Origin: an uncultured Holophagales bacterium
GTDB lineage: Bacteria; Acidobacteriota; Thermoanaerobaculia; Multivoradales; UBA5704
Assembly: GCA_963842525.1 (NCBI GenBank)
Contig: CAWJGT010000025.1
Location: 448,001-512,000, forward strand
Direction: 5' to 3'
DNA: 64,000 nucleotides
The translations under genes and the position numbers were made by a program. This document shows, in pieces, positions 1 through 48,667 of this stretch (within the stretch, counting starts at the first letter, position 1; the number at the start of each line of letters is the position of its first letter). The notes beneath the pieces are model-generated. The model ran no database searches. It was not told the DNA's origin and saw only the letters and a program-made list of their open reading frames with translations.

Positions 1-1209
1 GACCACCTGCTGGACGAGCCCGCCCGGCCCCGGCCCGCGCAGGGCGACCTCCAGGGCCGGCAGCATCTCGGTGCCGCCGGTCGTTGCGAGCGCCGTCACG
101 TACTGCCGCGCCTGCTGAACAGTGGCCGGATTCGCCGGGATACTGTCCTGGAACAGCGCCGAGGTGGTGCTGTTGAACTGGACGACGTTGAACCAATCCG
201 CCGACCCGAGGCGGTCCAGGCCCAGGAGAAGGGCCTGCCGTGCCTGCTCGATCGCCGGCCCGTCCATCGAGCCGGAGGTGTCGATCACGAAGACAGTCTC
301 TCGGGGGAGACGGTAGGCGGCCACCCCAGCCGCGTCGGGAGGCATCATCATCAGCAGGGCGTAGCGCTCGCCGTCCACCTCCTCCGTGAAGTAGACCGCC
401 CGGGGCTCGCGGCCGGTCTCGGGCGCCCACTCCAGGACGAAGTCGCCGTCCGCGAACGCCATGCCGCCGGCAAGGTCCACGGCCCAGCGGAGCCGCTTCG
501 GGTCGCCCTGGACCGCGATCCTGTGCGTTGGGCTTGTGATGCCTGTCAGAGGGAAGCCGGGCGCAAGGTCGACGTGCAGGGCGAAAGGATTGATCGGGCT
601 CATGCCTGGCGCCAGCACGGGAGGCTCGGGGATCGCAGGTGCGCAGGCGCCGGCGCTCTGTCCCGCCGGAGGGGTGTACCGCGGTGTCGCGAGCATGGGG
701 AATTGCAACGTGAACCGTCCCGCCTGGTAGCGCACCACCTGCTGGAGCTCGATCACGACCTCCACCGTTTCGCCGGGTCCCACATTGGAGACCGAAGTGG
801 TGAACAGACCCGGCCGGAGCTGATCGAGAAGCGATGCCTTCCGCCCTTCCTGCGCAGCGGCTTCGAAGGTCTGTTTCGCCTGCGCCTTTTCCTGGACGAC
901 GCCTTCGAGAACCCGGTCGCCAACGACGAGACGCAGCGTGTCCACGGCCGCGCCGTCCGGCAGTGGAAAGAGATAGATCCCGCTCAGCCAGCTACCGGTC
1001 GGATTGCGGAAGATCTGGGTGACCTTCGTGCGCGCCACGATACCGGTGATGCGCACCTCGACCGTGGTGCCGAGCACGGGAGCGGCGACCACGGAGCCCT
1101 GCGCCGTCTGGAGCACCAAACCGCTCTCATTCTCCGCACACCATGCGGGGTTTCCGATCATCCAGAGAGACAGAAGAATCCCAGCCGTCAGCCAACGGTA
1201 TCTGCACAT
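1..1209 (-). CDS. Secreted VIT + von Willebrand A domain protein (C-terminus runs off window start)
   Basis: Manual translation from ATG 1209 (RBS GGAGG): signal peptide MCRYRWLTAGILLSLW..., VIT-like VEVRITGIVARTKVTQIFRNP, in-frame vWA MIDAS FVIDTSGSM near 300. Absent from the ORF track because its stop lies outside the window. Confidence 0.85.
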   Translation of the reverse strand, partial: MCRYRWLTAGILLSLWMIGNPAWCAENESGLVLQTAQGSVVAAPVLGTTVEVRITGIVARTKVTQIFRNPTGSWLSGIYLFPLPDGAAVDTLRLVVGDRVLEGVVQEKAQAKQTFEAAAQEGRKASLLDQLRPGLFTTSVSNVGPGETVEVVIELQQVVRYQAGRFTLQFPMLATPRYTPPAGQSAGACAPAIPEPPVLAPGMSPINPFALHVDLAPGFPLTGITSPTHRIAVQGDPKRLRWAVDLAGGMAFADGDFVLEWAPETGREPRAVYFTEEVDGERYALLMMMPPDAAGVAAYRLPRETVFVIDTSGSMDGPAIEQARQALLLGLDRLGSADWFNVVQFNSTTSALFQDSIPANPATVQQARQYVTALATTGGTEMLPALEVALRGPGPGGLVQQVV

Positions 1210-1443
1210 TGTCCCTGCCTCCAAGAGAGCCCGTCCTCATGAGAAGACGGTCCAAATAAATCTGACAGGAGGAAAGAGCAAGCGGGATGCCACTCCCGAA
1301 AGCGCGGAAATCCGGGGGTTTTTAGAACGGAGGCGCGGCCGCGGTTCAATCGAATGAACCGCGGCGATCCAACCGGTTGAGCGAAACGGGCGGCAATCCG
1401 GGAAAAATGATCGATACGTCCCCGGGCGGGGACGTCGCCGTCC

Positions 1444-8542: not shown

Positions 8543-8577
8543 CGCGGCGTCGGGTTCCTCAGCTACAATCCTCGCAA

Positions 8578-10197
8578 ATGAGCCAGGAGACCGCCGACGG
8601 CTCCACGGTCGGGTGGTCCGGGACGGGTGCCCTGGGATCTGGACGGTCCTACGAGCGCACCATCGACCGGGTCGCCGCGCTGACCGTGCTCTACCATCCG
8701 GACCTGAGCCGGATCGGGCAGCGCGTCCTTCTGCCCGGGCTCCTGGCCGGGCGCGAGACCCTCCTCAGCCGGTACGAGCCGGAGCTGGCCGCGCCGGGCA
8801 AGCTCACCGGTGAGCCCCTGGCGGACATCTATATCAGCCGGCGCCCGATCGCTCTCAAGCCGGATGGCGGCAGCCTGGAGATCCAGGTCGGTGACAGCCG
8901 GACCGCGGTCGTCGCCCAGGGGATCTCGGTCTTCCAGAGCTGCCGTTTCCCGCGCGAGGAGCTGGAGCGTGGGATCGTGCTCGAGCTGTCCGGCCGGGTG
9001 GTGCTGCTCCTGCACACGATGGAGCCTCCGCCGCTCCGGTTGCCGCCGCAGCTCGGGCTGGTCGGCGACAGCGCGGGCCTGGTGCGGGTGCGGGCCGACG
9101 TGCAGCGGATCGCCGACCTGGAGGTGCCGGTCCTCCTGCGCGGCGAGACGGGCACGGGCAAGGAGCTCGCAGCGCGCGCCATCCACGAGTCGAGCCCGCG
9201 CCGCGAGGCCAGCCTCCTGGCCGTCAATCTGGGGGCCATCCCGGCGTCGCTCTCCGCCTCCGAGCTCTTCGGCGCCGTCAAGGGAGCGTTCACCGGCTCG
9301 GTAGGGATCCAGGAGGGCTACTTCCGCCGCGCCCACGGCGGCACGCTGTTCCTCGACGAGATCGCCGAGGCGCCGCCGGAGGTCCAGGTGATGCTCCTGC
9401 GCGTGGTCGAGGCCGGCGAGATGTACCCGGTCGGGTCGCAGACGCCGGTGCGGGTGGACGTGCGGGTGATCGCCGCCACGGACGCCGATCTGGAGGACCG
9501 GGTGCGCACCGGGGCGTTCCGGGGGCCGCTGCTCCACCGTCTCTCCGGGTACGAGGTCTGGATGCCGCCGCTGCGTGAGCGCCGTGACGACATCGGGCGC
9601 CTGCTGCTCCACTTCCTGCGTGAGGAGCTGCAGCGGATCGGGGAGGAGCACCGCCTCGACATCGAGTCCACGGCCTGCGATCCTCACTGGCTGCCGCCCC
9701 GGCTGGTTGCGCAGCTCGCCCGCTATGACTGGCCGGGCAACGTGCGGCAGCTCCGCAACGTGGTGCGCCAGCTCGTCATCGGCAGCCGCGGCCTCCCCCG
9801 GCTGGAGATCGGCCCCCAGGTCGCCCGGCTGCTGCAGGAGAAGTACGACCCTGTCGTCGAGGGCCTGTCGCCGTCTTCGGCCGAGATCCCGGCGCCGGTG
9901 GTCCAACCCCCCGCCCGGCGCCGGCCGGGCGAGGTCGCGGAAGAGGAGCTCGTCACGGCGCTGCGGGCCAACCGCTGGGACGTGAAGGCCACGGCGGAAA
10001 CCCTCCGCGTTTCGCGTACCTCGCTGTATGCCCTGATGGAGAGCTGTCCTCGCATCCGGAGGATTTCGGACCTCTCCCGGGAGGAGATCACGCGCTGCCA
10101 CGAGGACTGTGGCGGCGACGTGGACGCGATGGTCGAGCGCCTGGAGGTCTCGAAGCGTGCCCTCGGCCGCAGGCTGCGGGAGCTCGGGCTGGCCTGA
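8578..10197 (+). CDS. Sigma54-dependent enhancer-binding protein with degenerate FHA-like N-terminus and tandem C-terminal HTH
   Basis: GETGTGKE, ELFG..KGAFTGS, LFLDEI, WPGNVRQL; no receiver domain. Confidence 0.92.
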   Translation: MSQETADGSTVGWSGTGALGSGRSYERTIDRVAALTVLYHPDLSRIGQRVLLPGLLAGRETLLSRYEPELAAPGKLTGEPLADIYISRRPIALKPDGGSLEIQVGDSRTAVVAQGISVFQSCRFPREELERGIVLELSGRVVLLLHTMEPPPLRLPPQLGLVGDSAGLVRVRADVQRIADLEVPVLLRGETGTGKELAARAIHESSPRREASLLAVNLGAIPASLSASELFGAVKGAFTGSVGIQEGYFRRAHGGTLFLDEIAEAPPEVQVMLLRVVEAGEMYPVGSQTPVRVDVRVIAATDADLEDRVRTGAFRGPLLHRLSGYEVWMPPLRERRDDIGRLLLHFLREELQRIGEEHRLDIESTACDPHWLPPRLVAQLARYDWPGNVRQLRNVVRQLVIGSRGLPRLEIGPQVARLLQEKYDPVVEGLSPSSAEIPAPVVQPPARRRPGEVAEEELVTALRANRWDVKATAETLRVSRTSLYALMESCPRIRRISDLSREEITRCHEDCGGDVDAMVERLEVSKRALGRRLRELGLA

Positions 10198-10215
10198 GGT
10201 AAGCTCTCCGGGAGG

Positions 10216-12870
10216 TTGTCCTTGAGCCCGGAATCATCGGCGCATCCCGACAGGATCGGTCCCTACCGCATCGTACGACGGTTGGGGGCCGGCGGCATGG
10301 GGGAGGTGTTCCTCGCCTTTGACGACCGGCTCGACCGGCGGGTGGCGGTCAAGCGGATCCGCCCGGAAGCCAGAGCCAACCTCGAGCGCCGCGAGCGGCT
10401 CCGGCGGGAGGCCCGGGTCGCGGCCCGGCTCAACCACACCTCGATCGTCCAGGTCTACGACATCCTCCACGAGGAGGACAGCGACTACATCGTCATGGAG
10501 TACGTGGAGGGGAGGAACCTCCGCGAGCTGATCGAGAACGGGGCCGTTCCCCTCCGGGACGCCCTGGAGCTGGCCCGGGAGCTGGCCGACGGCCTCGACG
10601 CGGCCCACCGGCTGGGGATCGTCCACCGGGACTTCAAGACGGAGAACGTCCTCGTCACGGCCGCGGGCCGGGCGAAGATCACCGACTTCGGCATCGCCAA
10701 GCAGCTCCTGGGAGACGAGGAGGAGTCGCTGACCCGGGGCAACGTCGTCCTCGGCACCTACCGGTCCATGTCGCCCGAGCAGGCGCGCGGCGAGCCGGTG
10801 GACCACCGGACCGACCTGTTCTCCTTCGGCGTCCTGCTCTACGAGCTCTTCACCGGCCGCTCTCCCTTCCAGGCCGAGAACTCGCTGGCTACCCTGAACC
10901 AGGTCATCCACGTCCGCCAGAAGCCGGTCTGCGAGCTGGTCCCGGCGGTCCCGGCCGAGGTCTCGGACCTCGTGGACCACCTGCTGGAGAAGGACCCGCT
11001 CCTGCGCCCGCAGAGCGCCGGGCAGGTGCGGCGGGAGCTGGACCGGTTCGTCCAGGCCACCGCGGAGCTCGCGGAGACCGCGATGACGATGATCGAGCCT
11101 GCCGGCTCGAGGCGTGCGACCGGTGTTGGGAGCAGTGGGAGCCGGACGCGCCCCTCGTCGAGCGGCATCCCGCCGCGGCCGGACTCCGCGCTCACCACGC
11201 TCAAGGGCCGCCCGCGGCGCGCCCTCTGGGTCGTCGCGGCCCTGGTGCTCCTCGGGATTGCCGCCGGGGCGGCTTATTTCGCGCTACGGCCGCCTCGGCC
11301 TCCGCTGTACGTGGGGGTCCTCCGTCCGGAGGTTGGGGCCGGCGGCGGTGCCCCCGAGACCGAGCTGCTGTCCTCCGGAGTTCGGGTGGCATTGCTGCGG
11401 GCGCTGGTGTCTCTGGAGGGCATCTCACCGAAAGAGCTGGACGAGATCGACGCGGCGCCAGGGTCTCCACAGCAGGTGGCGCGGGAGGTGGCGGCCGATG
11501 AGATCGTCAGCTCTCGTCTCGACTGCCGGCCCGACGCCTGCCGGGTCGCGGTCAAACGGATCCGGGGGCGGGATGGAAGCGTGCTCTGGGCCGACAGCCT
11601 CGAGGTGCCGACCGACGACTTCTCGGTGGCGGCCAGCGCGGTCACCCGTCAGCTCCGTCTGGCCTATGCCGACCGGAAGACGCGCCGTGGCATCCCCGAT
11701 CTCGCCGTCGGCAGTGGAGATCTCAAGGAGCTCCTGCGGTTGCGGCGCCGGTTCGAGTCCCGCGGAGAAGCCTCCCTCGACCCGATCCTGGACGGACTGG
11801 AGGCCATCCGCGAGAGGTCTCCGGGTTTCCTCGACGCCTATCTGCTGGAGGCCAGGGCCGTGCTCTTCCGCTTCTGGGAGTCCCGGGATCCCGCGGACCT
11901 CCAACGCGGGTTCCGGCTCGCGCAGGATGCGCGGAAGCTCGCACCGGGAGATCCGCAGCCGCTCCTCGTCCTCGTCGAGCTCGCGCTGGCCGCCAACGAC
12001 CTCGAGCTGGCGAAGGACACCCTGGAGGAGCTCGAGCGTCTCGTGCCGGGCGACGTCCGGGTCCTGGAAAGGCGCGCCCGGTATCTGAACGCTCGCGGCA
12101 GGACGGAGGAGGCCCTCGAGCTCCTCCGCGAGACGGCCCGCGTCCACCCGTCGACCAACCGCCTGCGCAACCTGGCTCAGATGGAGTTCCAGCAGGGGCA
12201 GATCGCGCAGGCGCGGGAGCACCTGCAGCTCCTCCTGCAGCGTTCGCCGGCCGACAGCGGCGGCCTCAATCTCCTGGCCACGATCGAGCTCTCGAATGGC
12301 GACCCCCGGCGCGCGGCCGAGCTCTTCGGAGCTCTCGTCCAGCGCTCGCCGACTCCGGCCCGGCTGGCGAACCTGGCTCTCTCCTACTGCTTCCTCGGCC
12401 GCTATGCCGACGCCGTCGCGACCTATCGCCGCATCGTCGAGAAGGAGCCGCGCAACCCTCTCTATGCGCTCAACCTGGCCGACGCGTATTCCCTCCAGGG
12501 CCAGAAGGCCGAAGCGGACGCCCTGTACCGGAGGGTCCTGGAGCTGATCACGGCCGATCCCGCAGCCTCGGGCCCGCAGTTCCTCACCGCCAAGGCTCAG
12601 GCCCTGGCCCATCTCGGCCAAGGCCCGGACGCCGTAGCAGCGGTCCAGGAAGCGCTCCGGCTCGCCCCGAACGATGGTCCGGTGGCCTACGAGGGGGCCG
12701 TGGTCTACGCCCTCCTGGGAGAGAGCTCCTCGGCGCTCGTCAACGCCGAGAAGGCCCTGAAGCTCGGCATGCAGCCGCGATGGTTCTCCTTCCCCTGGTT
12801 CGACTCCTTACGGGGCAACCCCGCCTTCCAGAAGCTGCTTGCCGGATCAGAGCGCCCTGCTTCCTCCTAG
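10216..12870 (+). CDS. Membrane Ser/Thr protein kinase with C-terminal TPR repeats
   Basis: LGAGGMGEV, HRDFKTEN, DFGIAK, MSPEQ; TM WVVAALVLLGIAAGAAYF; helical repeats. Confidence 0.93.
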   Translation: MSLSPESSAHPDRIGPYRIVRRLGAGGMGEVFLAFDDRLDRRVAVKRIRPEARANLERRERLRREARVAARLNHTSIVQVYDILHEEDSDYIVMEYVEGRNLRELIENGAVPLRDALELARELADGLDAAHRLGIVHRDFKTENVLVTAAGRAKITDFGIAKQLLGDEEESLTRGNVVLGTYRSMSPEQARGEPVDHRTDLFSFGVLLYELFTGRSPFQAENSLATLNQVIHVRQKPVCELVPAVPAEVSDLVDHLLEKDPLLRPQSAGQVRRELDRFVQATAELAETAMTMIEPAGSRRATGVGSSGSRTRPSSSGIPPRPDSALTTLKGRPRRALWVVAALVLLGIAAGAAYFALRPPRPPLYVGVLRPEVGAGGGAPETELLSSGVRVALLRALVSLEGISPKELDEIDAAPGSPQQVAREVAADEIVSSRLDCRPDACRVAVKRIRGRDGSVLWADSLEVPTDDFSVAASAVTRQLRLAYADRKTRRGIPDLAVGSGDLKELLRLRRRFESRGEASLDPILDGLEAIRERSPGFLDAYLLEARAVLFRFWESRDPADLQRGFRLAQDARKLAPGDPQPLLVLVELALAANDLELAKDTLEELERLVPGDVRVLERRARYLNARGRTEEALELLRETARVHPSTNRLRNLAQMEFQQGQIAQAREHLQLLLQRSPADSGGLNLLATIELSNGDPRRAAELFGALVQRSPTPARLANLALSYCFLGRYADAVATYRRIVEKEPRNPLYALNLADAYSLQGQKAEADALYRRVLELITADPAASGPQFLTAKAQALAHLGQGPDAVAAVQEALRLAPNDGPVAYEGAVVYALLGESSSALVNAEKALKLGMQPRWFSFPWFDSLRGNPAFQKLLAGSERPASS

Positions 12871-13313
12871 CCGCCCGGCGGCTCGTAGATGATCGTCGGA
12901 TCGTGGGGCTCGTCCATTCCAGTGGGACCGACACAGAGCAGTGTGTAGTTGTTGGCCTGCACCTTGGCGCCCAGCGGCAGCCCGTTCAACGTGGGGATCG
13001 CAGCGGTCGTGAGCGACGTCCGCGACAAGCCGATGTAGGTGCTCATCTCGGGTTCGAAGGCGATCGCCAGGTTCTTGAACGAGGCGCCGGCAGTCACGAT
13101 GGTGAAGTTGACCTGGAAATATCCAGACGGGATCGAGAGTGCGCCGGTTTCCGCATCGAACGTGACTCCGTAGGGAAAAGGCCCTCCCTGGCTGAGCTGG
13201 ACTTTGTCCTCGCCGAGCACTGTGACATCGATTGGAATCGGGAGCGGCGGTGTGTCTACGAGCGAGAGGGTTTGCCGCTCCTCTGCTTCCAAGAGCGCGA
13301 CCTGAGTCGTCAT
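12867..13313 (-). CDS. Small beta-rich protein with C-terminal DPxI motif (DP-EP/AidA-PixA-like)
   Basis: 148 aa, RBS AAGGAGGAG, lower GC, ends HDPTIIYEPPGG. Family link is inferred from the motif only. Confidence 0.65.
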   Translation of the reverse strand: MTTQVALLEAEERQTLSLVDTPPLPIPIDVTVLGEDKVQLSQGGPFPYGVTFDAETGALSIPSGYFQVNFTIVTAGASFKNLAIAFEPEMSTYIGLSRTSLTTAAIPTLNGLPLGAKVQANNYTLLCVGPTGMDEPHDPTIIYEPPGG

Positions 13314-13346
13314 CGTTTTCTCCTCCTTCTGGATACCCTGGATAGC

Positions 13347-13361
13347 GCAAGGGTCATGCCA
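13347..13361 (-). promoter_or_regulatory. Sigma54 -24/-12 promoter
   Basis: Minus strand TGGCATGACCCTTGC, exact GG-N10-GC, 33 bp upstream of ATG 13313. Confidence 0.8.
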
Positions 13362-13420
13362 CCGGAGCTGGCAGGCCGCACAGGCGGGAAACGCCCTCAG
13401 AGCCGGTGATTCCAGAGGGA

Positions 13421-13477
13421 GCTGACGTGTCGGCGGCGTGTCGGTTGCCGCGCCGACATGTCGGAGGGTGTGTCAGA
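13421..13477. promoter_or_regulatory. Candidate enhancer (UAS) repeats
   Basis: Clustered TGTCGG/CCGACA half-sites including perfect palindrome CCGACATGTCGG, 60-115 bp upstream of the sigma54 site. Confidence 0.55.
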
Positions 13478-13528
13478 AACGGTGGAAATGCGGAGGCGTC
13501 CGCGGCTCGGACGCCTCCGGGGAGTGGC

Positions 13529-15115
<1,587 letters not shown>

Positions 15116-24241: not shown

Positions 24242-24256
24242 TGGCACGGCTCTTGC
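24242..24256 (+). promoter_or_regulatory. Sigma54 promoter
   Basis: TGGCACGGCTCTTGC, near-consensus. Confidence 0.75.
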
Positions 24257-24365: not shown

Positions 24366-24779
24366 ATGGCGACGATTGAAACCCTGGAAGCACGGAGCGG
24401 CAACAAGCTCCTCGACAATTTGGGAAGCCTTCGCGAGCGCGGCCTGGACAGCCTGAAGGGCCTGAAGCGTGGAAACATCAACCTCGGCAAAATCGAGCGC
24501 GTGGCCTCGGTGCTGGGTGGAGCGGCCCTCGCGGCCTGGGCGCTGAAGCGCCGCAGCAAGGGGACGCTCGGGCTCGCCCTGGCCGGGCTGCCGTTCGTCT
24601 GGCGTGGCGCCACCGGCCACTGCGCCCTCTACGATCGGCTGGGGATCGACCGCACTCACAGCAATGGCCAGCACACGGCCGGGCACCACGAGGGTGGCCT
24701 CGCACCGACCGGTGGGGAGACCCGCTCGAGCTCGTCCACCGCGCCCGGCGGGCTGCTGGGGCAAGAGCAGAGCTTCTAA
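24366..24779 (+). CDS. DUF2892 (YgaP-like) membrane protein
   Basis: NLGKIERVAS..RGATGHCALYDRLGI; RBS AAAGGAG. Confidence 0.8.
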   Translation: MATIETLEARSGNKLLDNLGSLRERGLDSLKGLKRGNINLGKIERVASVLGGAALAAWALKRRSKGTLGLALAGLPFVWRGATGHCALYDRLGIDRTHSNGQHTAGHHEGGLAPTGGETRSSSSTAPGGLLGQEQSF

Positions 24780-24836: not shown

Positions 24837-26144
24837 TCAGCGGGAGCCGGCTTCGAGCTCGACGTCGAGCTCGACCTCTTCACCCGCTTCGACCTCGAAG
24901 TCCCGCTCCTCGGGCCGGTGGCCGGGGCGGACCACGGCGAGGTGGTGCTTGCCGGCGTCGACCGCGAGGCCGCGGCGCAGACCGCCGAGCTCCTCGCCGG
25001 TGCCAACGAAGCGGCCGTCGAGATAGACCGAGGCATCGTCGGGCTCGATGTCCAGGACCAGCCGGCCGCGCGCATCGCTCCGCGTCTCGTCCCGCTGCTC
25101 GCGGCCATCCTCGTCGGCCTCGCCGGCGTCGCGACTGTCGCGGCGGTGCTCGCGGGCGCGATTCCGCCACTCCTCCATCCTGGCCTCGTCGTCCTCGTCG
25201 TCCTCGTCGTCGTAGGCCGGCCGGCCGCGCTCCAGGCGCTCGCGGCGCTCCCCCTCGTAGCGGAGGCGCTCGTCGCGCCGCTCGTGCGACTTCGAGGCGA
25301 GATCCTCGGGCTTCACCGACGTGCCGCGTTCCATCCGGTCATCGATGTCGATCACCATGCCCGGCGAGACCGAGATCTGGCGCGCCAGGGTGCTGAAGCC
25401 GTCGAGATAGAAGACGACGTCATAGGTGCCCCGGGGGAGCCAGAGGTACTGCGGGAAGCCGTCGTAGGCGTCGACCTTGCCGTAGTAGCGGCCGTCGATG
25501 TGGACCTCGGTCCGGCCGGGGTAGACGTCCAGGTCGAGGGCGCCATAGCGGTCCTGGCGGTAGCCGTAGCCGCGGTCGTAGTAGGGGTCGCGGTAGTACG
25601 GTGCGCGGTCGTACCAGTAGTAGTCGTCGTACCACCAGCCGATCGCGAAATTCGCCCAGAAGCCGCCCCAGTACGGTCCGCGATAACCCCAGTACGGATC
25701 GTAGCGCCAGGACCCGCCGTGGTGGCCGCCGCCATGGCCGCCACGGTTGTTGCGGCCGCTGTGCGGGCGCTGGCGATGCGCCTCGTCGACCTCACCGGGG
25801 GAGACCGGTACAGCGGTGCGAGGGCCGCGTCCGCGCGACGAGGTGCTCGACTCGCCGCCGGACGACGGCTCGCTGGATTCACCACCGCCGCCCGAGGACG
25901 AACGGGGCTCGACCCTTTGTGCCGGGCCCGACCAGCCTGAAGAGGACCCCCCTGAAGAGGAGGACGAATCGCCGCCGGACGGGGCCGCGGTCCGGGGAGC
26001 AGGGGAGTCGCTGGAATCGCTCGGCCGGGAGCTGCCGCGGTCCTGGGCGAGGAGAGAGCTGCCCGCCGCGAGCAGCAAGGCGGCCAGCAGCACCGGGGGC
26101 GAGCTCACCTTACGGAGCTGTACGGCTGCTCGTCGCAGAGTCAT
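24837..26144 (-). CDS. Secreted PEGA-domain protein
   Basis: Signal peptide, Ser/Gly- and Tyr-rich tracts, two PEGA-like units (VHIDGRYYG, VYLDGRFVG). Confidence 0.8.
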   Translation of the reverse strand: MTLRRAAVQLRKVSSPPVLLAALLLAAGSSLLAQDRGSSRPSDSSDSPAPRTAAPSGGDSSSSSGGSSSGWSGPAQRVEPRSSSGGGGESSEPSSGGESSTSSRGRGPRTAVPVSPGEVDEAHRQRPHSGRNNRGGHGGGHHGGSWRYDPYWGYRGPYWGGFWANFAIGWWYDDYYWYDRAPYYRDPYYDRGYGYRQDRYGALDLDVYPGRTEVHIDGRYYGKVDAYDGFPQYLWLPRGTYDVVFYLDGFSTLARQISVSPGMVIDIDDRMERGTSVKPEDLASKSHERRDERLRYEGERRERLERGRPAYDDEDDEDDEARMEEWRNRAREHRRDSRDAGEADEDGREQRDETRSDARGRLVLDIEPDDASVYLDGRFVGTGEELGGLRRGLAVDAGKHHLAVVRPGHRPEERDFEVEAGEEVELDVELEAGSR

Positions 26145-27081
26145 GGATGTGATCCTCCTTGATCAAGTCCGCGCCGGCATCTGACCAGGCGCGGTGCAGG
26201 CCCCGAATGTAGTGGTACCGGAGCGTTTCCTCCCACAGCTTCGGGACTCTGACAGGCAAGTTTTGCAAAGCGCGCACCAGCCTTTCACGCCACTGCTGAG
26301 GCCCCTCCGGAGGGAGGGGGGGAGGGCCTCCCGGACCGATCCCGAGGAACGGTCCGAGCTCCGGATGGAGCCGGTAGAAGACCACGGCGCAGTAGCCCGC
26401 CTTCTCCTGCCGCGCGGCGAAGCGCTCCAGGTCGGTCGGATGGTCGTGCGCCACGGTCGCCGCCGGCTCGTAGACCAGCCGCATCCCCCGCTTCCTCAGA
26501 CGGTAGGCGACCTCGATATCTTCCCATGCCGCATAGGGAAAACGAAGATCGAACGGCTCGGCGAGCAGCAGGTCGCGGGCGAGCGAGAGATTGGACGTGT
26601 AGAAGAAGTTGAAAGGGACGTCCTCCCGGTCCTTGATCAGGGCGTAGCCGAACTGGAGGCCGTGCTCGTTGATGTGCCGGAGGAAGGGGTTGAGGCGCAT
26701 CCGGCGGTGCCATCCGGTGTAGCCGATGACCGCCACGCGAAGGTCGTCGCCGCGCTGGCGGTGGGCCTCGCGATGAGTCTTGAGCCATCCGGCGGAAGGG
26801 ACGGTGTCGTCCCCCAGAAAGGCCACCCAACTCCCCTGCGCCACGGCCACGCCGGTGTTGCGTGCCGCGGCCGGTCCGCGGTTCTCCTGGGTGAGGATGC
26901 GCAGCGGCACCTGGAAGGTCCGGCTGCGCAGCCAGTCGCTCGTGCCGTCGGTCGATCCGTCGTCCACCACGACCACCTCGAACGGCGGCGGCGCGTGCTG
27001 GAACTCCAGCGCCTGGATCACCTCCGCCAGCGCTTCGAGGCGGTTGTGCGTGGGAATGACGACGGAGACGTCGACCGCCAT
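26110..27081 (-). CDS. Glycosyltransferase family 2
   Basis: VSVVIPTHN, VVDDGSTD, ARNTG, WED. Confidence 0.9.
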   Translation of the reverse strand: MAVDVSVVIPTHNRLEALAEVIQALEFQHAPPPFEVVVVDDGSTDGTSDWLRSRTFQVPLRILTQENRGPAAARNTGVAVAQGSWVAFLGDDTVPSAGWLKTHREAHRQRGDDLRVAVIGYTGWHRRMRLNPFLRHINEHGLQFGYALIKDREDVPFNFFYTSNLSLARDLLLAEPFDLRFPYAAWEDIEVAYRLRKRGMRLVYEPAATVAHDHPTDLERFAARQEKAGYCAVVFYRLHPELGPFLGIGPGGPPPLPPEGPQQWRERLVRALQNLPVRVPKLWEETLRYHYIRGLHRAWSDAGADLIKEDHIHDSATSSRTAP

Positions 27082-27109
27082 GGGGACAGCTTATACCGCG
27101 GACCGTGGG

Positions 27110-28441
27110 TCAGCTTCCCCACTCCATGACTTCCTCGAGCGCACAGCGCACCAGCGGCAGGTCCCCGGGCAGCCAGGCCTGGAAGCCGGGGCTGGCGAAG
27201 AGGGCATGGTCGCCTGGGTAGGTGGGAACCAGATAGAGCGGGAACTTCTCGAAGATCTCGCGGTCGGAGCGGCGGCGGCGTTTCTGGACGGCCTCGCGGC
27301 GGGCGGCGGCGCTGTCGAGGTGGCCGAGAAGCCAGGAGGCGGCACGGAGCTGGGCGACGGTCCTCTCGTCGGTGAGGTGCGGCGCGTCGTTCGCCGGCGC
27401 CGGCGGGGCCTGGCCGGTCAGCTTGCGGAGGCCGCGGCGGAGGAAGTCGCCGGGGCCGTAGCCTTGCCAGCGGACTTTGAAGCCGTCCCAGGTCCAGGCC
27501 GGCGGGAGCTGGGCAACCGGCGCCGGCGGGCTCGCCGGAGTGCCGTTGGGGGCGGTGTTGGCGATGTGGCCGGCGTAGGGGTCGAGGCGAAGGGCGGCGC
27601 CCCCGGGGTTGTGGTCGGCGAGGATGGTCTGGGTCCGGGAGAGAAATGTCAGCAGCAGGGACGGCATGACCTGCTCCCAAAGGCCGGGCTCGTAGTTTTT
27701 GTACGCGGTCAGGAAGGCGTTCCGCTCGAAGAGGAAGCCCCGGTTGAAGAGGCCCAGGAGGTCGCTCGTGGCGCTCGACCGGTGATGGACGACCGCGTCC
27801 GGCACGAAGATCACCCTCTCGCCGCCGGACCAGAGGCGCCAGCCGAGGTCGACGTCCTCCAGGTAGGCGAAGTAATCCTCGTCGAAGCCTCCCGCGGCCA
27901 GGAAGCTGGCCTTGCGGATCAGCATGTTGCCGCCGCAGGCGAAGAGGAGCTCCTCGCCTTCCCCTGGCACCCGGGCCTTTGCCAAGGGACGGCGGAAGTC
28001 GAGCTGGAAGGCGTGGCCGTCGAAGGTCATGACGCCGCGGCCGAAGTCGAGCCGGTCGCCTGTCCAGTCGACGATCTTGCCGGAGACGGCTGCCACGTCC
28101 GGCGGCGTGGCCGCCAGGGCCTGGACGAGAGCGCGCAGCCAGCCCCGTTGCGGCCGGGTGTCGTTGTTCAGGAAGGCCACGGCATCGCCCGTAGACTCGG
28201 CCACCAGGCGGTTGTTGCCGGCGCAGAAGCCGAGGTTGACAGGGCTCTCGATCAGCCGGACCCGGAGATTCCGCGGCTGGACCTCGCTCCGCAGCCAGGC
28301 CGCCGTGCCGTCGGTCGAGCCGTTGTCGAGGACCAGAATTTCCCAGCCGACGCCGGGGTCTTCCTGCTCCGCGAGGGCCGCGAGGCAGGTTTCCAGGTGT
28401 TTTCGTCCGTTCCAGGAGAGGATTGCCACCGAGACCTTCAC
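27110..28441 (-). CDS. Glycosyltransferase family 2
   Basis: GTG start; ILSWNG, DNGSTDG, FLNND, YLEDVDLGWR. Confidence 0.9.
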   Translation of the reverse strand: MKVSVAILSWNGRKHLETCLAALAEQEDPGVGWEILVLDNGSTDGTAAWLRSEVQPRNLRVRLIESPVNLGFCAGNNRLVAESTGDAVAFLNNDTRPQRGWLRALVQALAATPPDVAAVSGKIVDWTGDRLDFGRGVMTFDGHAFQLDFRRPLAKARVPGEGEELLFACGGNMLIRKASFLAAGGFDEDYFAYLEDVDLGWRLWSGGERVIFVPDAVVHHRSSATSDLLGLFNRGFLFERNAFLTAYKNYEPGLWEQVMPSLLLTFLSRTQTILADHNPGGAALRLDPYAGHIANTAPNGTPASPPAPVAQLPPAWTWDGFKVRWQGYGPGDFLRRGLRKLTGQAPPAPANDAPHLTDERTVAQLRAASWLLGHLDSAAARREAVQKRRRRSDREIFEKFPLYLVPTYPGDHALFASPGFQAWLPGDLPLVRCALEEVMEWGS

Positions 28442-29700
28442 CGCACGATCCTCCAACTCCGCAGCCGCCGCCGGAGACGCACGGTGAGTGGATCGGGTGG
28501 GGCGGCCGTCGCCGGACGGTAGACGAAAATCTCCTTGGTCTCGTCGGTCCGCGGCTCGCGGCAGAAGCGGACCAGTGGAGCGAGGGCCTGGTCCCAGCGG
28601 AAATCCCGCAGCAGCTCGCGGCCCCCGGCCCGGCAGCGCTCCCGGGCGGCCCCGTCCTCGACTGCCTCGACGAGCGCGCGCGCCAGAGCGTCCGCATCGC
28701 CCGGCGGCACCACCCAGCCTGCGCCGTGCTCGCGGAGCATCCGGCTCATGGCTCCGCCCGCGCTGGTGACCACCGGGCATCCGGCGGCCAGGGCATCCAG
28801 GAAGCGAGTGCGCAGGGAGAGGCGGGTCTCCAGGCTCGGCCGGTGCGGCGCCACCAGGAGGTCGAAATCCCGCAGGAGGTCGTACCGCCGGTCGGCCGGA
28901 GTCCAGTCGAGCACGCGCACGCGGCTCTCCCACCAGCCGAGCTGGCGGCAGCGCTCCTCGACCTCGGACATCAGGCGTTGCGGCGTGGTCTCCGGGTTCG
29001 GGTTGCGGATGAGGTAGAGGCTCCAGCCCGGCCGGCCGGTCTTTTCCAGGGCATCGAGCAGGGTCCAGGGGTCGTACCAGTCGTAGAGGCCGCCGAAGAG
29101 GAGGCGCACCTCGCCGGGCTGCCGTGCGGGCAGGACCGGCTGGTGCGGCGGCAGCTCGTCCGGCACGCCGAATGGGACCGGCGCGATCAGGGTCTCCAGG
29201 TCGGGATCGCGGGCGAGCCGGTCCGGGTTGATCCGGCCGAGAGCGGCGAGGAAACCGAGGTAGAAGGTGCGCTGCTCCTCGGACGAGCAGAGAAAGAAAT
29301 CGCCGCGCGACATCTGGAGCACCCAGGTCGCGTGGTCGTTACGGAACGGGCCGTAGCCCAAAGTCTCGAAGTAGCTCAGGTTCTCGACGAGCCAGGGGTC
29401 GTAGAGGTCGATGGCGACCGGCAGGTGCGGCACCTCGAGCACGAGGTCGTTGGCGAGGTGTCCCTGGGCGACCGCCCCCTGGCAGTCGGCGAGCAGCTCG
29501 GCAAAGCGTCCGCGCTCGGCGCGGCGAATGGCGCCACGATCGATCCCCAGCTCCGCGGTTTCCTCCGGCTCGGCCGGCGAGAGCAGGACCGTCTCGATCC
29601 CAAACTGCGGCAGCCGCCGCGCGAGCTCCAGATAGCGGATGCCGATCCCGGCCATGCGCGGGCGGACCGGCTCGCTGGAGAGGAGGGCGATGCGGGTCAT
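28438..29700 (-). CDS. Glycosyltransferase family 4
   Basis: MAGIGIRY, RTRFLDALAAGCPVV, VVPPGD. Confidence 0.85.
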   Translation of the reverse strand: MTRIALLSSEPVRPRMAGIGIRYLELARRLPQFGIETVLLSPAEPEETAELGIDRGAIRRAERGRFAELLADCQGAVAQGHLANDLVLEVPHLPVAIDLYDPWLVENLSYFETLGYGPFRNDHATWVLQMSRGDFFLCSSEEQRTFYLGFLAALGRINPDRLARDPDLETLIAPVPFGVPDELPPHQPVLPARQPGEVRLLFGGLYDWYDPWTLLDALEKTGRPGWSLYLIRNPNPETTPQRLMSEVEERCRQLGWWESRVRVLDWTPADRRYDLLRDFDLLVAPHRPSLETRLSLRTRFLDALAAGCPVVTSAGGAMSRMLREHGAGWVVPPGDADALARALVEAVEDGAARERCRAGGRELLRDFRWDQALAPLVRFCREPRTDETKEIFVYRPATAAPPDPLTVRLRRRLRSWRIVR

Positions 29701-29713
29701 GGGGAGGGTGGAA

Positions 29714-29877
29714 CCTCACCCCCTGGCCCCCTCTCCCATCTCCCTTCCACCCCCCGCCGGGAGAGGGGGGACGCATCCAGAGCCGTTTGGCGAGCTCGCC
29801 ACAGAGGCATCAACAACGTCCCCCCTCTCCCGGGGTTGGGCGGGTGGGAGATGGGAGAGGGGGCCAGGGGGTGAGGA
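29714..29877. repeat. Inverted doublet of REP-like palindromes
   Basis: CCTCACCCCCTGGCCCCCTCTCCC ... GGGAGAGGGGGCCAGGGGGTGAGG. Confidence 0.75.
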
Positions 29878-29899
29878 CTCCGCGCCGCCGCCCACCCCC

Positions 29900-31792
29900 T
29901 CACGACCTCCTCCTCTGCCACCACTGGTGGGTACGCCACGCCCGGGTGGACTCCATCTCCCGGATCAGCCGATTGAGGCGTTCGATCTCCGCATAGGTGC
30001 GGCCGAGGTGCGCTGTCTGGTCGTCGACGGCCGTGCGGAGCTTCCGCTCCTCGTCGTAGAGGCGCTGGAGCTCGGTCGACAGGCGGCCGTGCTCTTCCTT
30101 CGAGCCGGCCAGCTCGCCCGACACGTTGTGGAAGCGCTCTTCCCAGAGGAACCGCTCGCGGGCCAGGGCCTCGTGCGCCTGCCGGAGAGCCTCCAGATCG
30201 TTCCCCAGGCGGTCCACCTCCCGGCGGGCGCTGGCCCAGCCCTCCTGCCCGGCTACGGCCTCGGCCCGTAGAGTGTCGACCGCCCGCGCCAGGACGTCCG
30301 GACGGAGGCGTCCGGCGTGCTTGGCGAGCACCCGAGCCTTGATCGCCAGGAAGTCCCCGCGCTCCCGCGGGCGCTCGCCGAAGATGTGATGCGCGCCGCC
30401 GCGGAAGTGCCGGTATTCGCAGGTCACCCGCGCCAGGTGATGGAACGGGGTGAGGGCCGCGAGGCGGATCAGGTAGTCCCAGTCCTCGAAGAAGGGGAGG
30501 CTTGGATCGAACGGTCCGGCTTCGGAGAACAGACCGCGCTCGATGAGCAGGGTGTTGAACGGGATGTAGTTGTCGACCAGCAGGATGTCCGGATCGAAGT
30601 CGCGGCTGTAGGGGAGACGCCGGTCGCGGCAGGACCAGCCGCCGTCCGGGTCCAGCTCGTAGACCGCTACCGCGGCGTCGGTGTAGGCGACACGCACTCC
30701 GGCCGCTCCGACGAGGCCGGCCAGTGTCGCCAGGTGCTCGGGCGCGGCCAGGTCGTCGTCGTCCAGGAAGGCAACGAAGTCGCCGCTTGCCGCCGCGATA
30801 CCGGCTTCGGCCGCGCCGGCCCGGCCGCGGCTTTCCTCCAGGTCGACCCGTACGACCGGCAGCGGGTAGTCCGGTGGCACCTCCGGCGGCGCGCCTCCAT
30901 CGTTGACCAGGACCACCTCGGCGCGGTGGTACTCCCCCTCGGCCAGGCTCGCCAGGGCCTCGGCCAGCAGAGCCGGACGGTCGCGGGTGCGGACGATCAC
31001 CGAGACGAGCGGTCCTTCGCGCACCTCTGCGACCTCCGGCAGGCCGCCCAGGAAGCGGACGAGCTGCGCCGCGCTACGGGTCGTGAAGTCCTGGACGGTG
31101 AGCCGTCGGTAGGCCTCGGCGAGACCGACCTCCGGGCCGAGGCTGAGGGTGCGGAACCGGCGCAGGCCCAGCCCGGCGTTCAAATAGGGATGCCGTTCCT
31201 CCTGGCTGCCATAGCAGGCCATGGCCGCCTCGATCGCCGGCCCTTCGGCCGTGACGTCGACCAGCAGGTCCGGATGGGCCGGGTGGTTGACCTCGTAGAG
31301 CAGGATGCGCAGGCCGCGGAAGGCCTCCTCTTCGAGCCCGCGCACTGGCGCGAGCAGGCGGTGGACGGCCGCGAAGGCGGCGCGGTGGTCGCGTGTCACC
31401 TCCAGGGGCGAGGGGACCAGCAGCAGCTCGGGCCGCTGCGTCAGGACGGCTTTCCGGATCCCCTCCACCGCCGCACCGAGGTGCTGGTCGAGAGAGCCAT
31501 CGGGGAGGTCGAGCCCGGCCCAGCCGGCGAGGCCGAGGATCTGGGCGGCCTGGCCCACCTCCTGGCGGCGGCGCAGCCGGTAGGCCGCCCGGTCGGTGAT
31601 CCCTTCGGTCGCCTCGCTCCCGCCGCCGCCGTCGGTCAGGAAGAGGACGCGCACCGCGGCGCCGGCCGTGGCGAGCTGGGCCAGGAGGCCGCCGCAGCCG
31701 AGGACCTCGTCGTCGTAATGGGGTGCGAGAACCAGGACGCTCGCGGCGCGCACCCGCTCGGTCCAGCCTGGAGGGGGTTGGACCCTGTTCAC
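29900..31792 (-). CDS. PIG-L deacetylase + GT2 + coiled-coil fusion
   Basis: APHYDDEVLGCGG, RDH; IVRTRDR, FLDDDD, FEDWD; heptad tail. Confidence 0.85.
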   Translation of the reverse strand: MNRVQPPPGWTERVRAASVLVLAPHYDDEVLGCGGLLAQLATAGAAVRVLFLTDGGGGSEATEGITDRAAYRLRRRQEVGQAAQILGLAGWAGLDLPDGSLDQHLGAAVEGIRKAVLTQRPELLLVPSPLEVTRDHRAAFAAVHRLLAPVRGLEEEAFRGLRILLYEVNHPAHPDLLVDVTAEGPAIEAAMACYGSQEERHPYLNAGLGLRRFRTLSLGPEVGLAEAYRRLTVQDFTTRSAAQLVRFLGGLPEVAEVREGPLVSVIVRTRDRPALLAEALASLAEGEYHRAEVVLVNDGGAPPEVPPDYPLPVVRVDLEESRGRAGAAEAGIAAASGDFVAFLDDDDLAAPEHLATLAGLVGAAGVRVAYTDAAVAVYELDPDGGWSCRDRRLPYSRDFDPDILLVDNYIPFNTLLIERGLFSEAGPFDPSLPFFEDWDYLIRLAALTPFHHLARVTCEYRHFRGGAHHIFGERPRERGDFLAIKARVLAKHAGRLRPDVLARAVDTLRAEAVAGQEGWASARREVDRLGNDLEALRQAHEALARERFLWEERFHNVSGELAGSKEEHGRLSTELQRLYDEERKLRTAVDDQTAHLGRTYAEIERLNRLIREMESTRAWRTHQWWQRRRS

Positions 31793-34071: not shown

Positions 34072-34075
34072 CCGG

Positions 34076-34221
34076 CCCTCACCCCCGGCCCCTCTCCCAT
34101 CCGCCCACCCCCACCGCCGGGAGAGGGGAGCTTCGCTTCGTTCACCGGAATCCGGATCTTCTCCCCCCTCTCCCGGTGGCCGGGAGGGCGGTTGGGAGAG
34201 GGGGGCCAGGGGGGTGAGGGG
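34076..34221. repeat. Inverted doublet of REP-like palindromes
   Basis: CCCTCACCCCCGGCCCCTCTCCC ... GGGAGAGGGGGGCCAGGGGGGTGAGGG. Confidence 0.75.
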
Positions 34222-34228
34222 CCGCGCC

Positions 34229-34936
34229 TCAACGCCCGTCTCTCCGCCCGCGCCAGCGCAGCATCAGCACGTCCCAGAACATGCGGAGGGAATCGGTCAT
34301 GGGATTGACCCGCGACGAGGAGGAGTCGGCCCAGCGGACGCCCACCTCGACGACCCGGTAGCCGTGCCGGCGCGCGAGCCAGACCAGCTCGACGTCGTAG
34401 GCGAAGCGCTCGATCTGAAGCTTCCGGAAGAGCTCGCGCGCCACGTCCCCGTCCAGCAGCTTGAAGCCGCACTGGGTGTCGCGCAGGCCGCGCACGCCCA
34501 GCAGGCGGATGATCAGGTTGAAGGTCCGGCCCATCATCTCCCGGTATACGGGCTGGTGCAGGGTGATGTCCGAGCCGGCCACCGCGCGGCTGCCGAGGAT
34601 CACCTCGGCCTCCTGGAGATGGGGCCGCAGCCGCTCCAGGTCCTCGATCGGCGTCGAGAGGTCGGCGTCGACCAGCAGCACCTCGTCGCCGCGGCTCTCC
34701 AGGACGCCGACCCGCAGCACCGCCCCCTTGCCGCGGTTCTCGGGCTGGCGCAGCAGGTGCACCCCCTGGGCCGCGAACTCCTCGGCCACGGCCGCGGTGG
34801 CGTCGGTGCTGCCGTCGTCGACCACCAGCACCTCGTAGACGACCCCCTGGCCGCGCAGGTAGTCCACCACCCGCCGCAAAGTAGGGCGCAGGCGCAGTGC
34901 CTCGTTGTAGGCGGGGATGACGACGGACAGGTCCAT
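34229..34936 (-). CDS. Polyprenol-phosphate glycosyltransferase (GT2, DPM/ALG5-like)
   Basis: VVIPAYNE, NRGKG, DADLS, DTQCGFK. Confidence 0.9.
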   Translation of the reverse strand: MDLSVVIPAYNEALRLRPTLRRVVDYLRGQGVVYEVLVVDDGSTDATAAVAEEFAAQGVHLLRQPENRGKGAVLRVGVLESRGDEVLLVDADLSTPIEDLERLRPHLQEAEVILGSRAVAGSDITLHQPVYREMMGRTFNLIIRLLGVRGLRDTQCGFKLLDGDVARELFRKLQIERFAYDVELVWLARRHGYRVVEVGVRWADSSSSRVNPMTDSLRMFWDVLMLRWRGRRDGR

Positions 34937-34974
34937 AGAGCGGCCGGATTATATGCGGGGCTAGAATCGGGACG

Positions 34975-44611: not shown

Positions 44612-44830
44612 ATGCGAGTAACCACCGGAAGAGTCGTCAACGGCAAGATCGAGGTTCCTGACGAGGAGTTGGCCGAGGGGATGGTTGTGACCATCTTGGC
44701 GCCCGAGGATCAGGGCACCTTCACCCTTGGCCCTGAAGCGGAGGCCGCCCTCTTGGCCTCGATCGAGGAGGCAGACCGCGGCGAGGTGATTTCGGGAGAA
44801 GAGCTCTTACGGGAGCTGCGGCGAGATTGA
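44612..44830 (+). CDS. Putative type II antitoxin
   Basis: 72 aa, acidic, LASIEEADRGEVI; overlaps toxin start by 4 nt. Confidence 0.7.
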   Translation: MRVTTGRVVNGKIEVPDEELAEGMVVTILAPEDQGTFTLGPEAEAALLASIEEADRGEVISGEELLRELRRD

Positions 44831-45137
44831 GTCTGCGGCTGCCACTGCAAGTCACTCGCCGGGCCCGCCGCGAGATCCGGGCAGCCTCGGCATGGTGGGA
44901 CGAAAGTCGTCCTGCTGCGCCCGACGCGTTCCGGGACGCCATTGACAAGGCATTCGAGCTGATTTGCACTCAGCCGAGCATAGGGACGGCCGCGTCCAAC
45001 GTCAGGCTTCCTGATGTGCGCCGCATTCTCTTGAGCAAAGTTCAGTACTACCTCTACTATCGTGTAAAGAGCAACCCGCCTACGGTTGAAGTGGTGGCGA
45101 CTGGCACACGAGCCGATACCCAGATCTCAACCTGTAG
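44827..45137 (+). CDS. RelE/ParE toxin (one-base deletion near 45100)
   Basis: TRRARREIRAASAWW, VRRILL..YYLYYRV; typical WHTSR end and stop at 45137 lie in a shifted frame. Confidence 0.75.
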
Positions 45138-45201
45138 CGAAAAAACAAGCCGAGCCGGAAGCTATTCTCCGCTTGAGTCGGGGGCATGGGACAAGCGTGA
45201 C

Positions 45202-45261
45202 GGCCAACGTGATGCACCTCAGCGCGCGGCGTCAGCCGTCCGCTGGAGGTGCAGGTTGGGC
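45202..45261 (-). mobile_element. Integron attC site 1
   Basis: Minus strand GCCCAAC ctgcacctccagcg...cgctgaggtgcatcac GTTGGCC; 60-bp imperfect hairpin. Confidence 0.75.
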
Positions 45262-45827: not shown

Positions 45828-45851
45828 CTTTCGGCTTTAATCGACTGAGTC

Positions 45852-45923
45852 GCCCAACGCTGTGGGCCTCAGCGCGCACCTTGGGCGCGAGCCCAGGTGT
45901 CAGCTGGAGGCCCGGTGTTGGGC
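45852..45923 (-). mobile_element. Integron attC site 2
   Basis: Minus strand GCCCAAC accgggcctccagc...gctgaggcccacagc GTTGGGC; 72 bp. Confidence 0.8.
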
Positions 45924-45925
45924 GT

Positions 45926-47826: not shown

Positions 47827-47956
47827 CGTCAACCTTAATCCATACGGTCTCAAGATACGAAGACAGGACGCGCTCCTCGGACTCGTAAAGTAGAACCCCG
47901 ATCACCAGGCTTGGTAGACCGAGTAGAACGCACAGAAGTCGCAGGATGATGGGCAT
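47827..47956 (-). pseudogene. 5' remnant of a low-GC membrane-protein gene cut by IS66
   Basis: MPIILRLLCVLLGL...WIKVD runs into the right IR. Confidence 0.55.
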
Positions 47957-48649: not shown

Positions 48650-48667
48650 CGGAGCGGAACCGTGCAC

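Follow-up and report, generated by a model that had tools for sequence, protein, structure and literature searches.

A 64,000-nt stretch of a contig (CAWJGT010000025.1) from an uncultured Holophagales bacterium, hereafter the window, contains between positions 8578 and 13477 three genes, the locus examined here, that appear to form a compact signaling module. From the parts and their arrangement, as given by the sequence and by models, we infer, with a probability of roughly 0.55, a chain in which a Ser/Thr kinase would act on a sigma-54 activator through a divergent FHA domain, the activator would open a sigma-54 promoter, and this promoter would drive production of a small DP-EP-like protein that would form dimers and most likely cleave itself at an Asp-Pro bond. 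The components belong to kinds that are already known, namely FHA-type sigma-54 activators, GarA/OdhI switches, EmbR-type regulators and DP-EP proteins, which include a member with a solved structure. The novelty lies in an FHA subfamily and an Asp-Pro protein family, both overlooked by current models, and in their pairing in one compact circuit. The three genes are:

8578..10197, plus strand: sigma-54 activator (bacterial enhancer-binding protein, bEBP), 539 aa, recognized by Pfam models; disordered tail, FHA-like domain, AAA+ domain, tandem Fis-type helix-turn-helix (HTH)
10216..12870, plus strand: Hanks-type Ser/Thr kinase, 884 aa, recognized by Pkinase and TPR models; one membrane helix, large TPR-containing outer domain
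12867..13313, minus strand: DP-EP-like beta-sandwich protein, 148 aa, known from a 39-protein family and a fold model; no signal peptide

Genes and arrangement

An earlier note on this DNA, made from the sequence alone, had described the three genes, a promoter, upstream repeats and an HDPTII motif, and all of these features were found again at the same positions. It had also placed the bEBP and the kinase in an operon, and the arrangement fits one, with 18-24 nt between the activator stop codon and the kinase start; the 148-aa gene, as the note held, is convergent with this operon (12867-13313 on the minus strand against 8578-12870 on the plus strand). The kinase starts at TTG 10216 or, more likely, at TTG 10222, 6 nt after GGGAGG, and the start codon of the activator is supported by the lengths of its homologues (532-547 aa).

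The activator and its putative FHA domain

The activator is divided as follows:

8578..8661, plus strand: N-terminal tail, residues 1-28, Ser/Thr-rich, predicted from pLDDT to be disordered; candidate phospho-acceptor, with T10, S14 and T16 as candidate sites
8665..9027, plus strand: divergent FHA domain, residues ~30-150, from the AlphaFold2 fold and its Foldseek comparison with the PDB
9058..9555, plus strand: AAA+ sigma-54 interaction domain, residues 161-326 (PF00158)
9943..10194, plus strand: C-terminal DNA-binding region, two HTH_8-like stretches, from Pfam HTH_8 and the sequence

The protein encoded by 8578-10197 combines an AAA+ domain with Walker motifs, a GAFTGA-type loop and a Fis-type HTH, the features by which bEBPs are recognized. 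Pfam identifies Sigma54_activat (PF00158) at residues 161-326 with an E-value of 1e-55, together with AAA_lid_14, and, in the translation, Walker A reads GETGTGKE at residue 189 and LFLDE is also present. The loop that contacts sigma-54 reads GAFTGS at residue 236 and differs from GAFTGA by one conservative change in the last position. At the C-terminus, HTH_8 matches two stretches (E 5.1e-8), the better of them at residues 456-484. The activator fits no named NCBIfam equivalog, given that all 25 listed models score far under their cut-offs (NtrC, 250 bits against 558.6).

Instead of a two-component receiver, the activator appears to carry a phosphopeptide-reading domain. The earlier description of this bEBP as receiver-less is borne out, there being no receiver domain and no Pfam match of any kind in residues 1-160, and the accompanying idea that it is of the FHA type gains support from the predicted fold. 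AlphaFold2, supplied with window residues 1-161 and 61 homologues as alignment rows (62 sequences in total), returned five models with mean values of the predicted local distance difference test (pLDDT) of 83.8-84.5, the best being 84.5; residues 30-150 reach 94-98, and residues 1-28 fall below 50. All 16 listed PDB matches of this model at E below 1e-3 in Foldseek are FHA domains or FHA-containing complexes (target-normalized TM-score, TMt, 0.65-0.79), with OdhI at the top (E 4e-5, TMt 0.73) and ArnA, CT664, DgcB, GarA and FhaA among the others. R65, S87 and R88 are invariant in all 62 aligned sequences, fall in the loops where they would be expected and would correspond to the phosphate-binding FHA Arg and Ser-Arg motifs, a mapping taken from the order of the motifs, not from superposition. 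The tail is also conserved in character, Ser or Thr occupying reference positions 14/15 in 58 of the 62 homologues, with three of the four misses having shorter annotated N-termini.

Against the identification of the activator sensor as a divergent FHA domain stands its reliance on the predicted fold as the one source of the call: residues 1-161 match no Pfam family at E up to 10, including FHA (PF00498) and Yop-YscD_cpl, and hhalign of the activator alignment against the canonical FHA regulator of a related locus, L001, described below, gives a probability of 0.2.

The N-terminal 160 residues of the activator are common to 92 protein clusters, none of which carries a Pfam FHA annotation and the names of which point to metagenome-assembled genomes (MAGs) of Thermoanaerobaculia and Acidobacteriota and to Myxococcota (Archangium, Cystobacter, Sorangium, Haliangium). 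Domain models thus miss an FHA subfamily that is present on at least 92 clusters of sigma-54 activators from Acidobacteriota and Myxococcota. In one of these homologues (P0137, 777 aa), a protein kinase domain is fused ahead of the FHA-like, AAA+ and HTH units, which provides a gene-fusion argument for a kinase partner of the activator; the annotated start of this protein coincides with position 27 of the Pkinase profile, so that the protein may be truncated. The combination of a Ser/Thr tail and an FHA unit on an AAA+ activator suggests a simple route by which Ser/Thr phosphorylation could replace two-component receivers in sigma-54 regulation.

Two further observations concern the ends of the activator gene. 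The start codons of the activator and of a divergent pseudouridine synthase gene are only 35 bp apart (8543-8577), TACAAT ends 8 nt upstream of the activator ATG and no Shine-Dalgarno sequence is visible; given the last two features, the activator mRNA may be leaderless. The two consecutive Fis-type HTH-like stretches with which the protein ends (9943-10194) are unusual for sigma-54 activators and are kept in the subfamily consensus.

The kinase

The kinase (10216-12870, plus strand) matches Pkinase (PF00069) with an E-value of 4.4e-53, and its catalytic motifs are intact (Gly loop at residue 24, VAVK Lys 43, HRD 137 and DFG 157). The kinase domain is followed by a Ser/Thr-rich linker, a single hydrophobic helix is found at residues 336-357 (nt 11221-11286), and the C-terminal part of ~520 residues contains TPR repeats, with many TPR models matching residues 577-850. 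This TPR-rich C-terminal half lies outside the membrane.

The PADLOC matches to PD-T4-6 and mad6 (kinase) and to an RtcR-type protein (activator) are generic domain matches and are not taken to speak for a defense system. Elsewhere in the window, two further Ser/Thr kinase-TPR genes occur in the stretches 50594-53975 (minus strand), 54525-55274 (plus) and 58970-61444 (plus) together with genes for extracytoplasmic function (ECF) sigma factors. An ECF sigma factor gene (PF07638) immediately precedes one of these kinase-TPR genes, and another gene of this type is near, an arrangement that resembles that of ECF sigma factors paired with kinases.

The control region of the small gene

Upstream of the 148-aa gene, the following elements are found:

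13320..13327, minus strand: Shine-Dalgarno sequence AGGAGGAG, 6-8 nt before the ATG, read from the sequence
13347..13361, minus strand: sigma-54 promoter core TGGCATGACCCTTGC, exact TGGCA-N6-TTGC, 34 nt before the ATG
13422..13433, no strand: second, imperfect version of the palindrome at a distance of 31 bp; candidate activator site
13439..13444, no strand: additional TGTCGG; candidate activator site
13453..13464, no strand: perfect palindrome CCGACATGTCGG; candidate activator site
13491..13519, minus strand: 12-bp perfect hairpin after the DEAD-box helicase gene, an inverted repeat with 100% complementarity

Along the minus strand, the hairpin is thus followed by the perfect palindrome, TGTCGG, the imperfect palindrome, the promoter, the Shine-Dalgarno sequence, which makes for strong ribosome binding, and the ATG (13313). 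The hairpin separates the control region from the upstream neighbor, a DEAD-box helicase gene (13529-15115; DEAD, Helicase_C).

The window contains three exact TGGCA-N6-TTGC cores, where 0.25 would be expected and one of 100 shuffled sequences reaches three, and each of these cores precedes a gene in the proper orientation. The "exact sigma54 promoter" that the earlier note placed at 13347-13361 stands as far as this core is concerned and no further: TGGCATGACCCTTGC has two mismatches to the 16-nt extended consensus, and a search of the window that tolerates two mismatches yields 11 matches against 7.45 expected, which is not unusual.

The palindromic TGTCGG/CCGACA repeats reported upstream of the gene were likewise confirmed. 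TGTCGG is found at 13428, 13439 and 13459 and CCGACA at 13453, such that four of the 34 copies in the window are packed within 37 bp (13428-13464), the sole cluster of at least three in the window; a cluster of four was reached by none of 200 Markov sequences. A 12-bp palindrome taken alone is common in the window (43 against 35 expected). The TGTCGG copies are 11, 20 and 31 bp apart and hence on one helix face. Going by the usual -12 spacing, transcription would start near 13335, which would put the candidate activator sites at about -90 to -125. The double Fis-type HTH of the activator may be linked to the mixture of direct and inverted hexamers.

Downstream of the small gene, a pattern scan detected no terminator, and the predicted RNA fold is no more stable than that of shuffled sequences (z -0.11). 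The stop codons of the kinase gene and the small gene overlap in the palindrome CTAG (12867-12870), and past neither of the two genes is a terminator-like structure found. With no terminator and overlapping stop codons, an induced transcript of the small gene could conceivably run antisense into the kinase gene and perhaps act as a brake. Rfam recognizes no family in the window.

The other two exact cores belong to different genes. The second, TGGCACGGCTCTTGC (24242-24256, plus strand), lies ~110 nt upstream of an open reading frame (ORF) of ~137 aa (24367-24779, plus strand) that is preceded by a good ribosome-binding site and encodes a product hydrophobic in its middle part, and the third, TGGCATCCCGCTTGC (1278-1292, minus strand), is upstream of a gene for a protein with VIT and von Willebrand A domains (1-1236, minus strand) that runs off the window.

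The small protein and its family

The small gene is present once in the window, and the GC content at third codon positions (GC3) of its frame, 0.80, is the highest of the three overlapping frames (the others being 0.46 and 0.60). Both its GC content of 61.7% and this GC3 are lower than those of the neighboring genes (70-74% and 0.89-0.94, respectively), which could stem from amino-acid make-up, expression level or foreign origin.

In an exhaustive phmmer search, 1.84 billion representatives yielded 17 proteins at E up to 1e-3, namely 4 small relatives and 13 large repeat proteins that match residues 29-92 many times. A profile search enlarged the family to 39 clusters, 8 of 142-149 aa and 31 of 112-129 aa; the source names given are those of Acidobacteriota and Thermoanaerobaculia MAGs only. 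Invariant in the family alignment are F79, D138, P139, P145 and P146. The earlier note had made its idea depend on conservation of the Asp-Pro pair among homologues, and this conservation held: D138-P139 is present in all 39 members, within the motif [H]DPT[IV][IE][YN][ED]PP located 10-13 residues from the C-terminus. The note's statement that the protein ends in HDPTII was right about the presence of the motif and wrong about its being the end, the C-terminus being HDPTIIYEPPGG, with Asp138-Pro139 11 residues from it.

Domain databases are nearly silent on this family. In Pfam, the 148-aa protein yields solely He_PIG (PF05345) below the cut-off (13.5 bits against 24, E 0.1), and He_PIG is listed for one of the 39 members; no family was found in NCBIfam, PHROGs or PADLOC, and tblastn searches of plasmids with the small protein and with the FHA part of the activator gave no match. 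Current domain models accordingly miss, in addition to the FHA subfamily, this rare family of Asp-Pro proteins with its 39 clusters.

The best structural model of the 148-aa protein (mean pLDDT 79.5, predicted TM-score 0.69) is a beta-sandwich with an N-terminal helix, in which the last strand is preceded by a turn that holds the Asp-Pro pair. In the Foldseek search of the PDB, chains of SO1698, the Shewanella oneidensis protein of the DP-EP (DUF1888) family, occupy six of the top seven ranks (1-4, 6 and 7; E 1.8e-4 to 1.4e-3, query-normalized TM-score, TMq, 0.50-0.55, TMt 0.59-0.65), rank 5 being a phage connector chain (9mt4_G). A viral fold library gave generic beta-sandwich matches alone, with TM-scores of at most 0.54. 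Among the nearest ESM Atlas clusters, DP-EP is the sole Pfam family, both for the window protein, the recognition value of which is below the usual mark, and for family member P0034. The titles of PDB entries name D116A and P117A mutants of SO1698 in chains of 119-122 residues, which puts the SO1698 bond in the same near-C-terminal place as D138-P139. Together, these observations make it moderately probable that the small protein is a distant relative of SO1698, and self-cleavage at Asp138-Pro139, by analogy with SO1698, is the most likely behavior of the bond.

In the homodimer prediction, the small protein scores 0.74 compared to 0.00 for the best control; of proteins with solved structures, 20 of 30 pairs and one of 23 single chains attained this mark. 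The contacts agree between runs by at least 89%, with a partner pLDDT of at least 84, and the predicted interface involves strands 85-97 and 105-113 and the N-terminal helix. The small protein is predicted to be a cytoplasmic, dimer-forming beta-sandwich, the dimer score being the model's own confidence.

The likeness to DP-EP proposed in the earlier note is thus upheld in part, by the best PDB fold match, the invariant Asp-Pro pair and the ESM Atlas neighbors, and in part not, and the following points count against it. The Pfam model of DP-EP (PF08985) matches none of the 39 members at E up to 10, and PDB searches with the sequence and with two family profiles gave chance matches (best E 0.069) that did not include SO1698. 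The five models have mean pLDDT values of 79.5, 69.0, 63.2, 56.1 and 46.5, only the best being confident, and the match to SO1698 is moderate, with a root-mean-square deviation of about 5 Å. D138 is the sole acidic residue that is invariant in the family, and therefore a counterpart of Asp37 of SO1698, which like Ser114 is among the residues mutated in that protein, is not evident; in the family alignment, there is likewise no invariant Ser or Lys that might correspond to Ser114 and Lys98. Phage beta-sandwich proteins, Ig-like ones included, reach E-values similar to those of SO1698 at lower TM-scores, and He_PIG Ig-like repeats show a likeness to residues 30-71, each with 44% identity and an E-value of 2e-5.

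The last two points lead to the most serious competing view of the small protein, namely that it is an ordinary stand-alone He_PIG-type Ig-like beta-sandwich in which Asp-Pro is an uncleaved structural turn and the likeness to SO1698 reflects the general fold. This view could account for the 13 large multi-repeat proteins found by phmmer, with E-values from 1.8e-23 and 17 He_PIG stretches in the top one (P0006), for the pairwise identity over residues 30-71, for the similar Foldseek E-values of phage Ig-like proteins, and for the lack of both an invariant second acidic residue and a Pfam DP-EP match. Nevertheless, we regard it as doubtful, though a real contender: the He_PIG-like stretch lies largely in an insertion that is absent from 31 of the 39 members, the Pfam score of He_PIG stays below its cut-off, the strictly invariant D-P and P-P fall in the last strand, at the place of the bond cleaved in SO1698, the best TM-scores belong to SO1698, and DP-EP recurs among the ESM Atlas neighbors.

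Membership in the PixA/AidA inclusion-body family, also raised in the earlier note, is very improbable. PixA does appear among the fold matches (PDB 4lzk, E 1.2e-2, TMq 0.43), but at rank 38, below many unrelated beta-sandwiches, none of the 39 members matches the Pfam PixA model at E up to 10, and the accessible text of PMC9060813 gives PixA proteins a length of 173-191 aa, against 112-149 aa in the small-protein family. The "DPxI" ending that the note ascribed to AidA/PixA proteins was likewise left without backing, no statement of such an ending having been found in the sources accessible.

Beyond the Asp-Pro region, the family alignment shows Ile or Val three positions after the nearly invariant Thr103 of the small protein, an FHA-type pT-x-x-I/V pattern. 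On this pattern, the DP-EP-like protein might, though with low probability, itself be a substrate of the kinase that is read by the FHA domain as feedback.

A related locus and the possible coupling of the genes

A genome scan gave two pattern matches and one confirmed locus (L001, on a contig of an Acidobacteriota MAG), so that the comparison is with one locus. There, a kinase-TPR gene is followed, 76 nt further on and on the same strand, by the gene for a 112-aa relative of the small protein (27% identical), and a regulator consisting of Trans_reg_C and FHA domains, that is, a winged HTH (wHTH)-FHA protein, is encoded divergently from the kinase-TPR gene. Hence the theme of a kinase, an FHA-bearing transcription factor and a small Asp-Pro protein recurs, with the class of regulator differing. 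No convincing repeats were found near the L001 genes. A relative of the small protein (P0021) and a relative of the FHA activator (P0072) each have a longest listed contig of 14844 bases and may share that contig.

It is conceivable, but at present improbable, that DP-EP-like self-processing beta-sandwiches are generally the dedicated outputs of circuits of Ser/Thr kinases and FHA regulators in Acidobacteriota, with the class of regulator being interchangeable. If true, this would be the first physiological setting for the orphan DUF1888 fold.

The same comparison bears on whether the three genes of the window belong together at all. Their adjacency might be coincidental, the activator and the kinase controlling other promoters and a different sigma-54 activator driving the small gene. 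Several facts agree with this possibility and thereby detract from a dedicated circuit. The FHA subfamily of the activator, with its 92 clusters that extend to Myxococcota, is far larger than the 142-149-aa subgroup of the small-protein family with its 8, so the pair is not strictly coupled. Kinase-TPR genes are frequent, with three in the 64 kb, and the two further sigma-54 cores in the window mean that other activators must exist. The L001 kinase is closer, over its full length, to a different window kinase, that of 50594-53404 (32% over 840 aa, E 5e-90), and matches the module kinase over the kinase domain only (E 3e-37), so that it is not an orthologue of the latter. Also against a dedicated circuit are the lack of a sigma-54 core before the L001 small gene and that of rpoN among the 40 ORFs of the window that were scanned. 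Nonetheless, we consider coincidence unlikely, given that the hexamer cluster has no second in the window, is as far from the promoter as enhancers typically are and lies beside the only activator gene found there, and that the small gene's distant relative in L001 also accompanies a kinase and an FHA-bearing regulator.

The proposed course of regulation

If the genes do form the kinase-activator-promoter chain, the TPR-bearing outer domain would read an outside signal and activate the kinase, which would phosphorylate itself, in the activation loop or the Ser/Thr-rich juxtamembrane linker, or the tail of the activator, or both. The FHA domain of the activator would read the phosphothreonine, as in GarA/OdhI, and this reading would free the AAA+ domain to form a ring at the clustered hexamers, which would open the sigma-54 promoter. 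Once made, the small protein would dimerize and probably cleave its own Asp138-Pro139 bond, leaving the 10-residue C-terminal strand PTIIYEPPGG, residues 139-148 and about 1.1 kDa, in place or released. In this scheme, a distant DP-EP relative would be the single visible target of a compact circuit of kinase, FHA activator and sigma-54 promoter, which makes both its induction and its processing directly testable.

Other genes in the window

A patch of mobile or addiction-type genes extends over 44827-49651 and 57334-58479 and includes genes for a ParE toxin domain, an IS66 transposase, a Uma2 nuclease-like protein and a Fic/DOC protein. Glycosyltransferase, PIG-L deacetylase, sulfatase and PEGA-domain genes follow one another at 26110-36360 and probably form a surface polysaccharide cluster.

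Comparison with known systems

The closest known counterparts of the activator are the FHA-domain sigma-54 enhancer-binding proteins that have reportedly been described in Myxococcus xanthus, which share with it the combination of FHA, AAA+ and HTH without a receiver domain; homologues of its N-terminal domain occur in Myxococcota, namely Archangium, Cystobacter, Sorangium and Haliangium. The window activator differs from these proteins in that its FHA domain escapes the Pfam FHA model, and in having a conserved Ser/Thr tail and sharing an operon with a presumed kinase.

The disordered Ser/Thr tail followed by an FHA domain resembles GarA/OdhI, the actinobacterial FHA switches phosphorylated by PknB/PknG, in which the phosphorylated tail folds back and occupies the FHA domain of the same molecule. 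Both of these switches inhibit enzymes as stand-alone proteins, whereas in the activator the unit is joined in one polypeptide to a transcription ATPase and its phosphorylation is presumed.

Pairs of the EmbR-PknH type consist of a wHTH regulator with an FHA domain and a Ser/Thr kinase. L001 resembles them in that its Trans_reg_C and FHA regulator adjoins a kinase-TPR gene, which the small gene follows closely, and differs from them in that the regulator is without a BTAD domain; in the window, an FHA sigma-54 activator takes the place of the wHTH-FHA regulator.

With the PixA/AidA proteins (PF12306), which are small and strongly regulated according to the accessible text of PMC9060813, the small protein shares the general beta-sandwich and differs in size, the fold match being weak and a model match lacking.

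The comparison of most consequence is that with SO1698 (DUF1888/DP-EP, PF08985; "an aspartic peptidase" in the PDB), a small beta-sandwich of similar size with an Asp-Pro pair near the C-terminus (D116-P117, corresponding to D138-P139 in the 148-aa protein); SO1698 reportedly undergoes self-cleavage at Asp116-Pro117. The 148-aa protein also shows the "DP ... EP" spacing (D138-P139 ... E144-P145). The differences are several: there is no detectable sequence similarity between SO1698 and the small-protein family; Ser114 seems to be without a counterpart (Pro136 in the 148-aa protein, variable across the family), and a conserved counterpart of Asp37 or Lys98 is not evident in the alignment; and SO1698 lacks the N-terminal helix of the small protein and the He_PIG-like insertion of the 142-149-aa subgroup. 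To our knowledge, DP-EP/DUF1888 proteins have a solved structure and no known biological role, our literature searches on this family found nothing, and we know of no regulatory context described for them. The small protein of this locus, in contrast, comes with a defined regulatory context.

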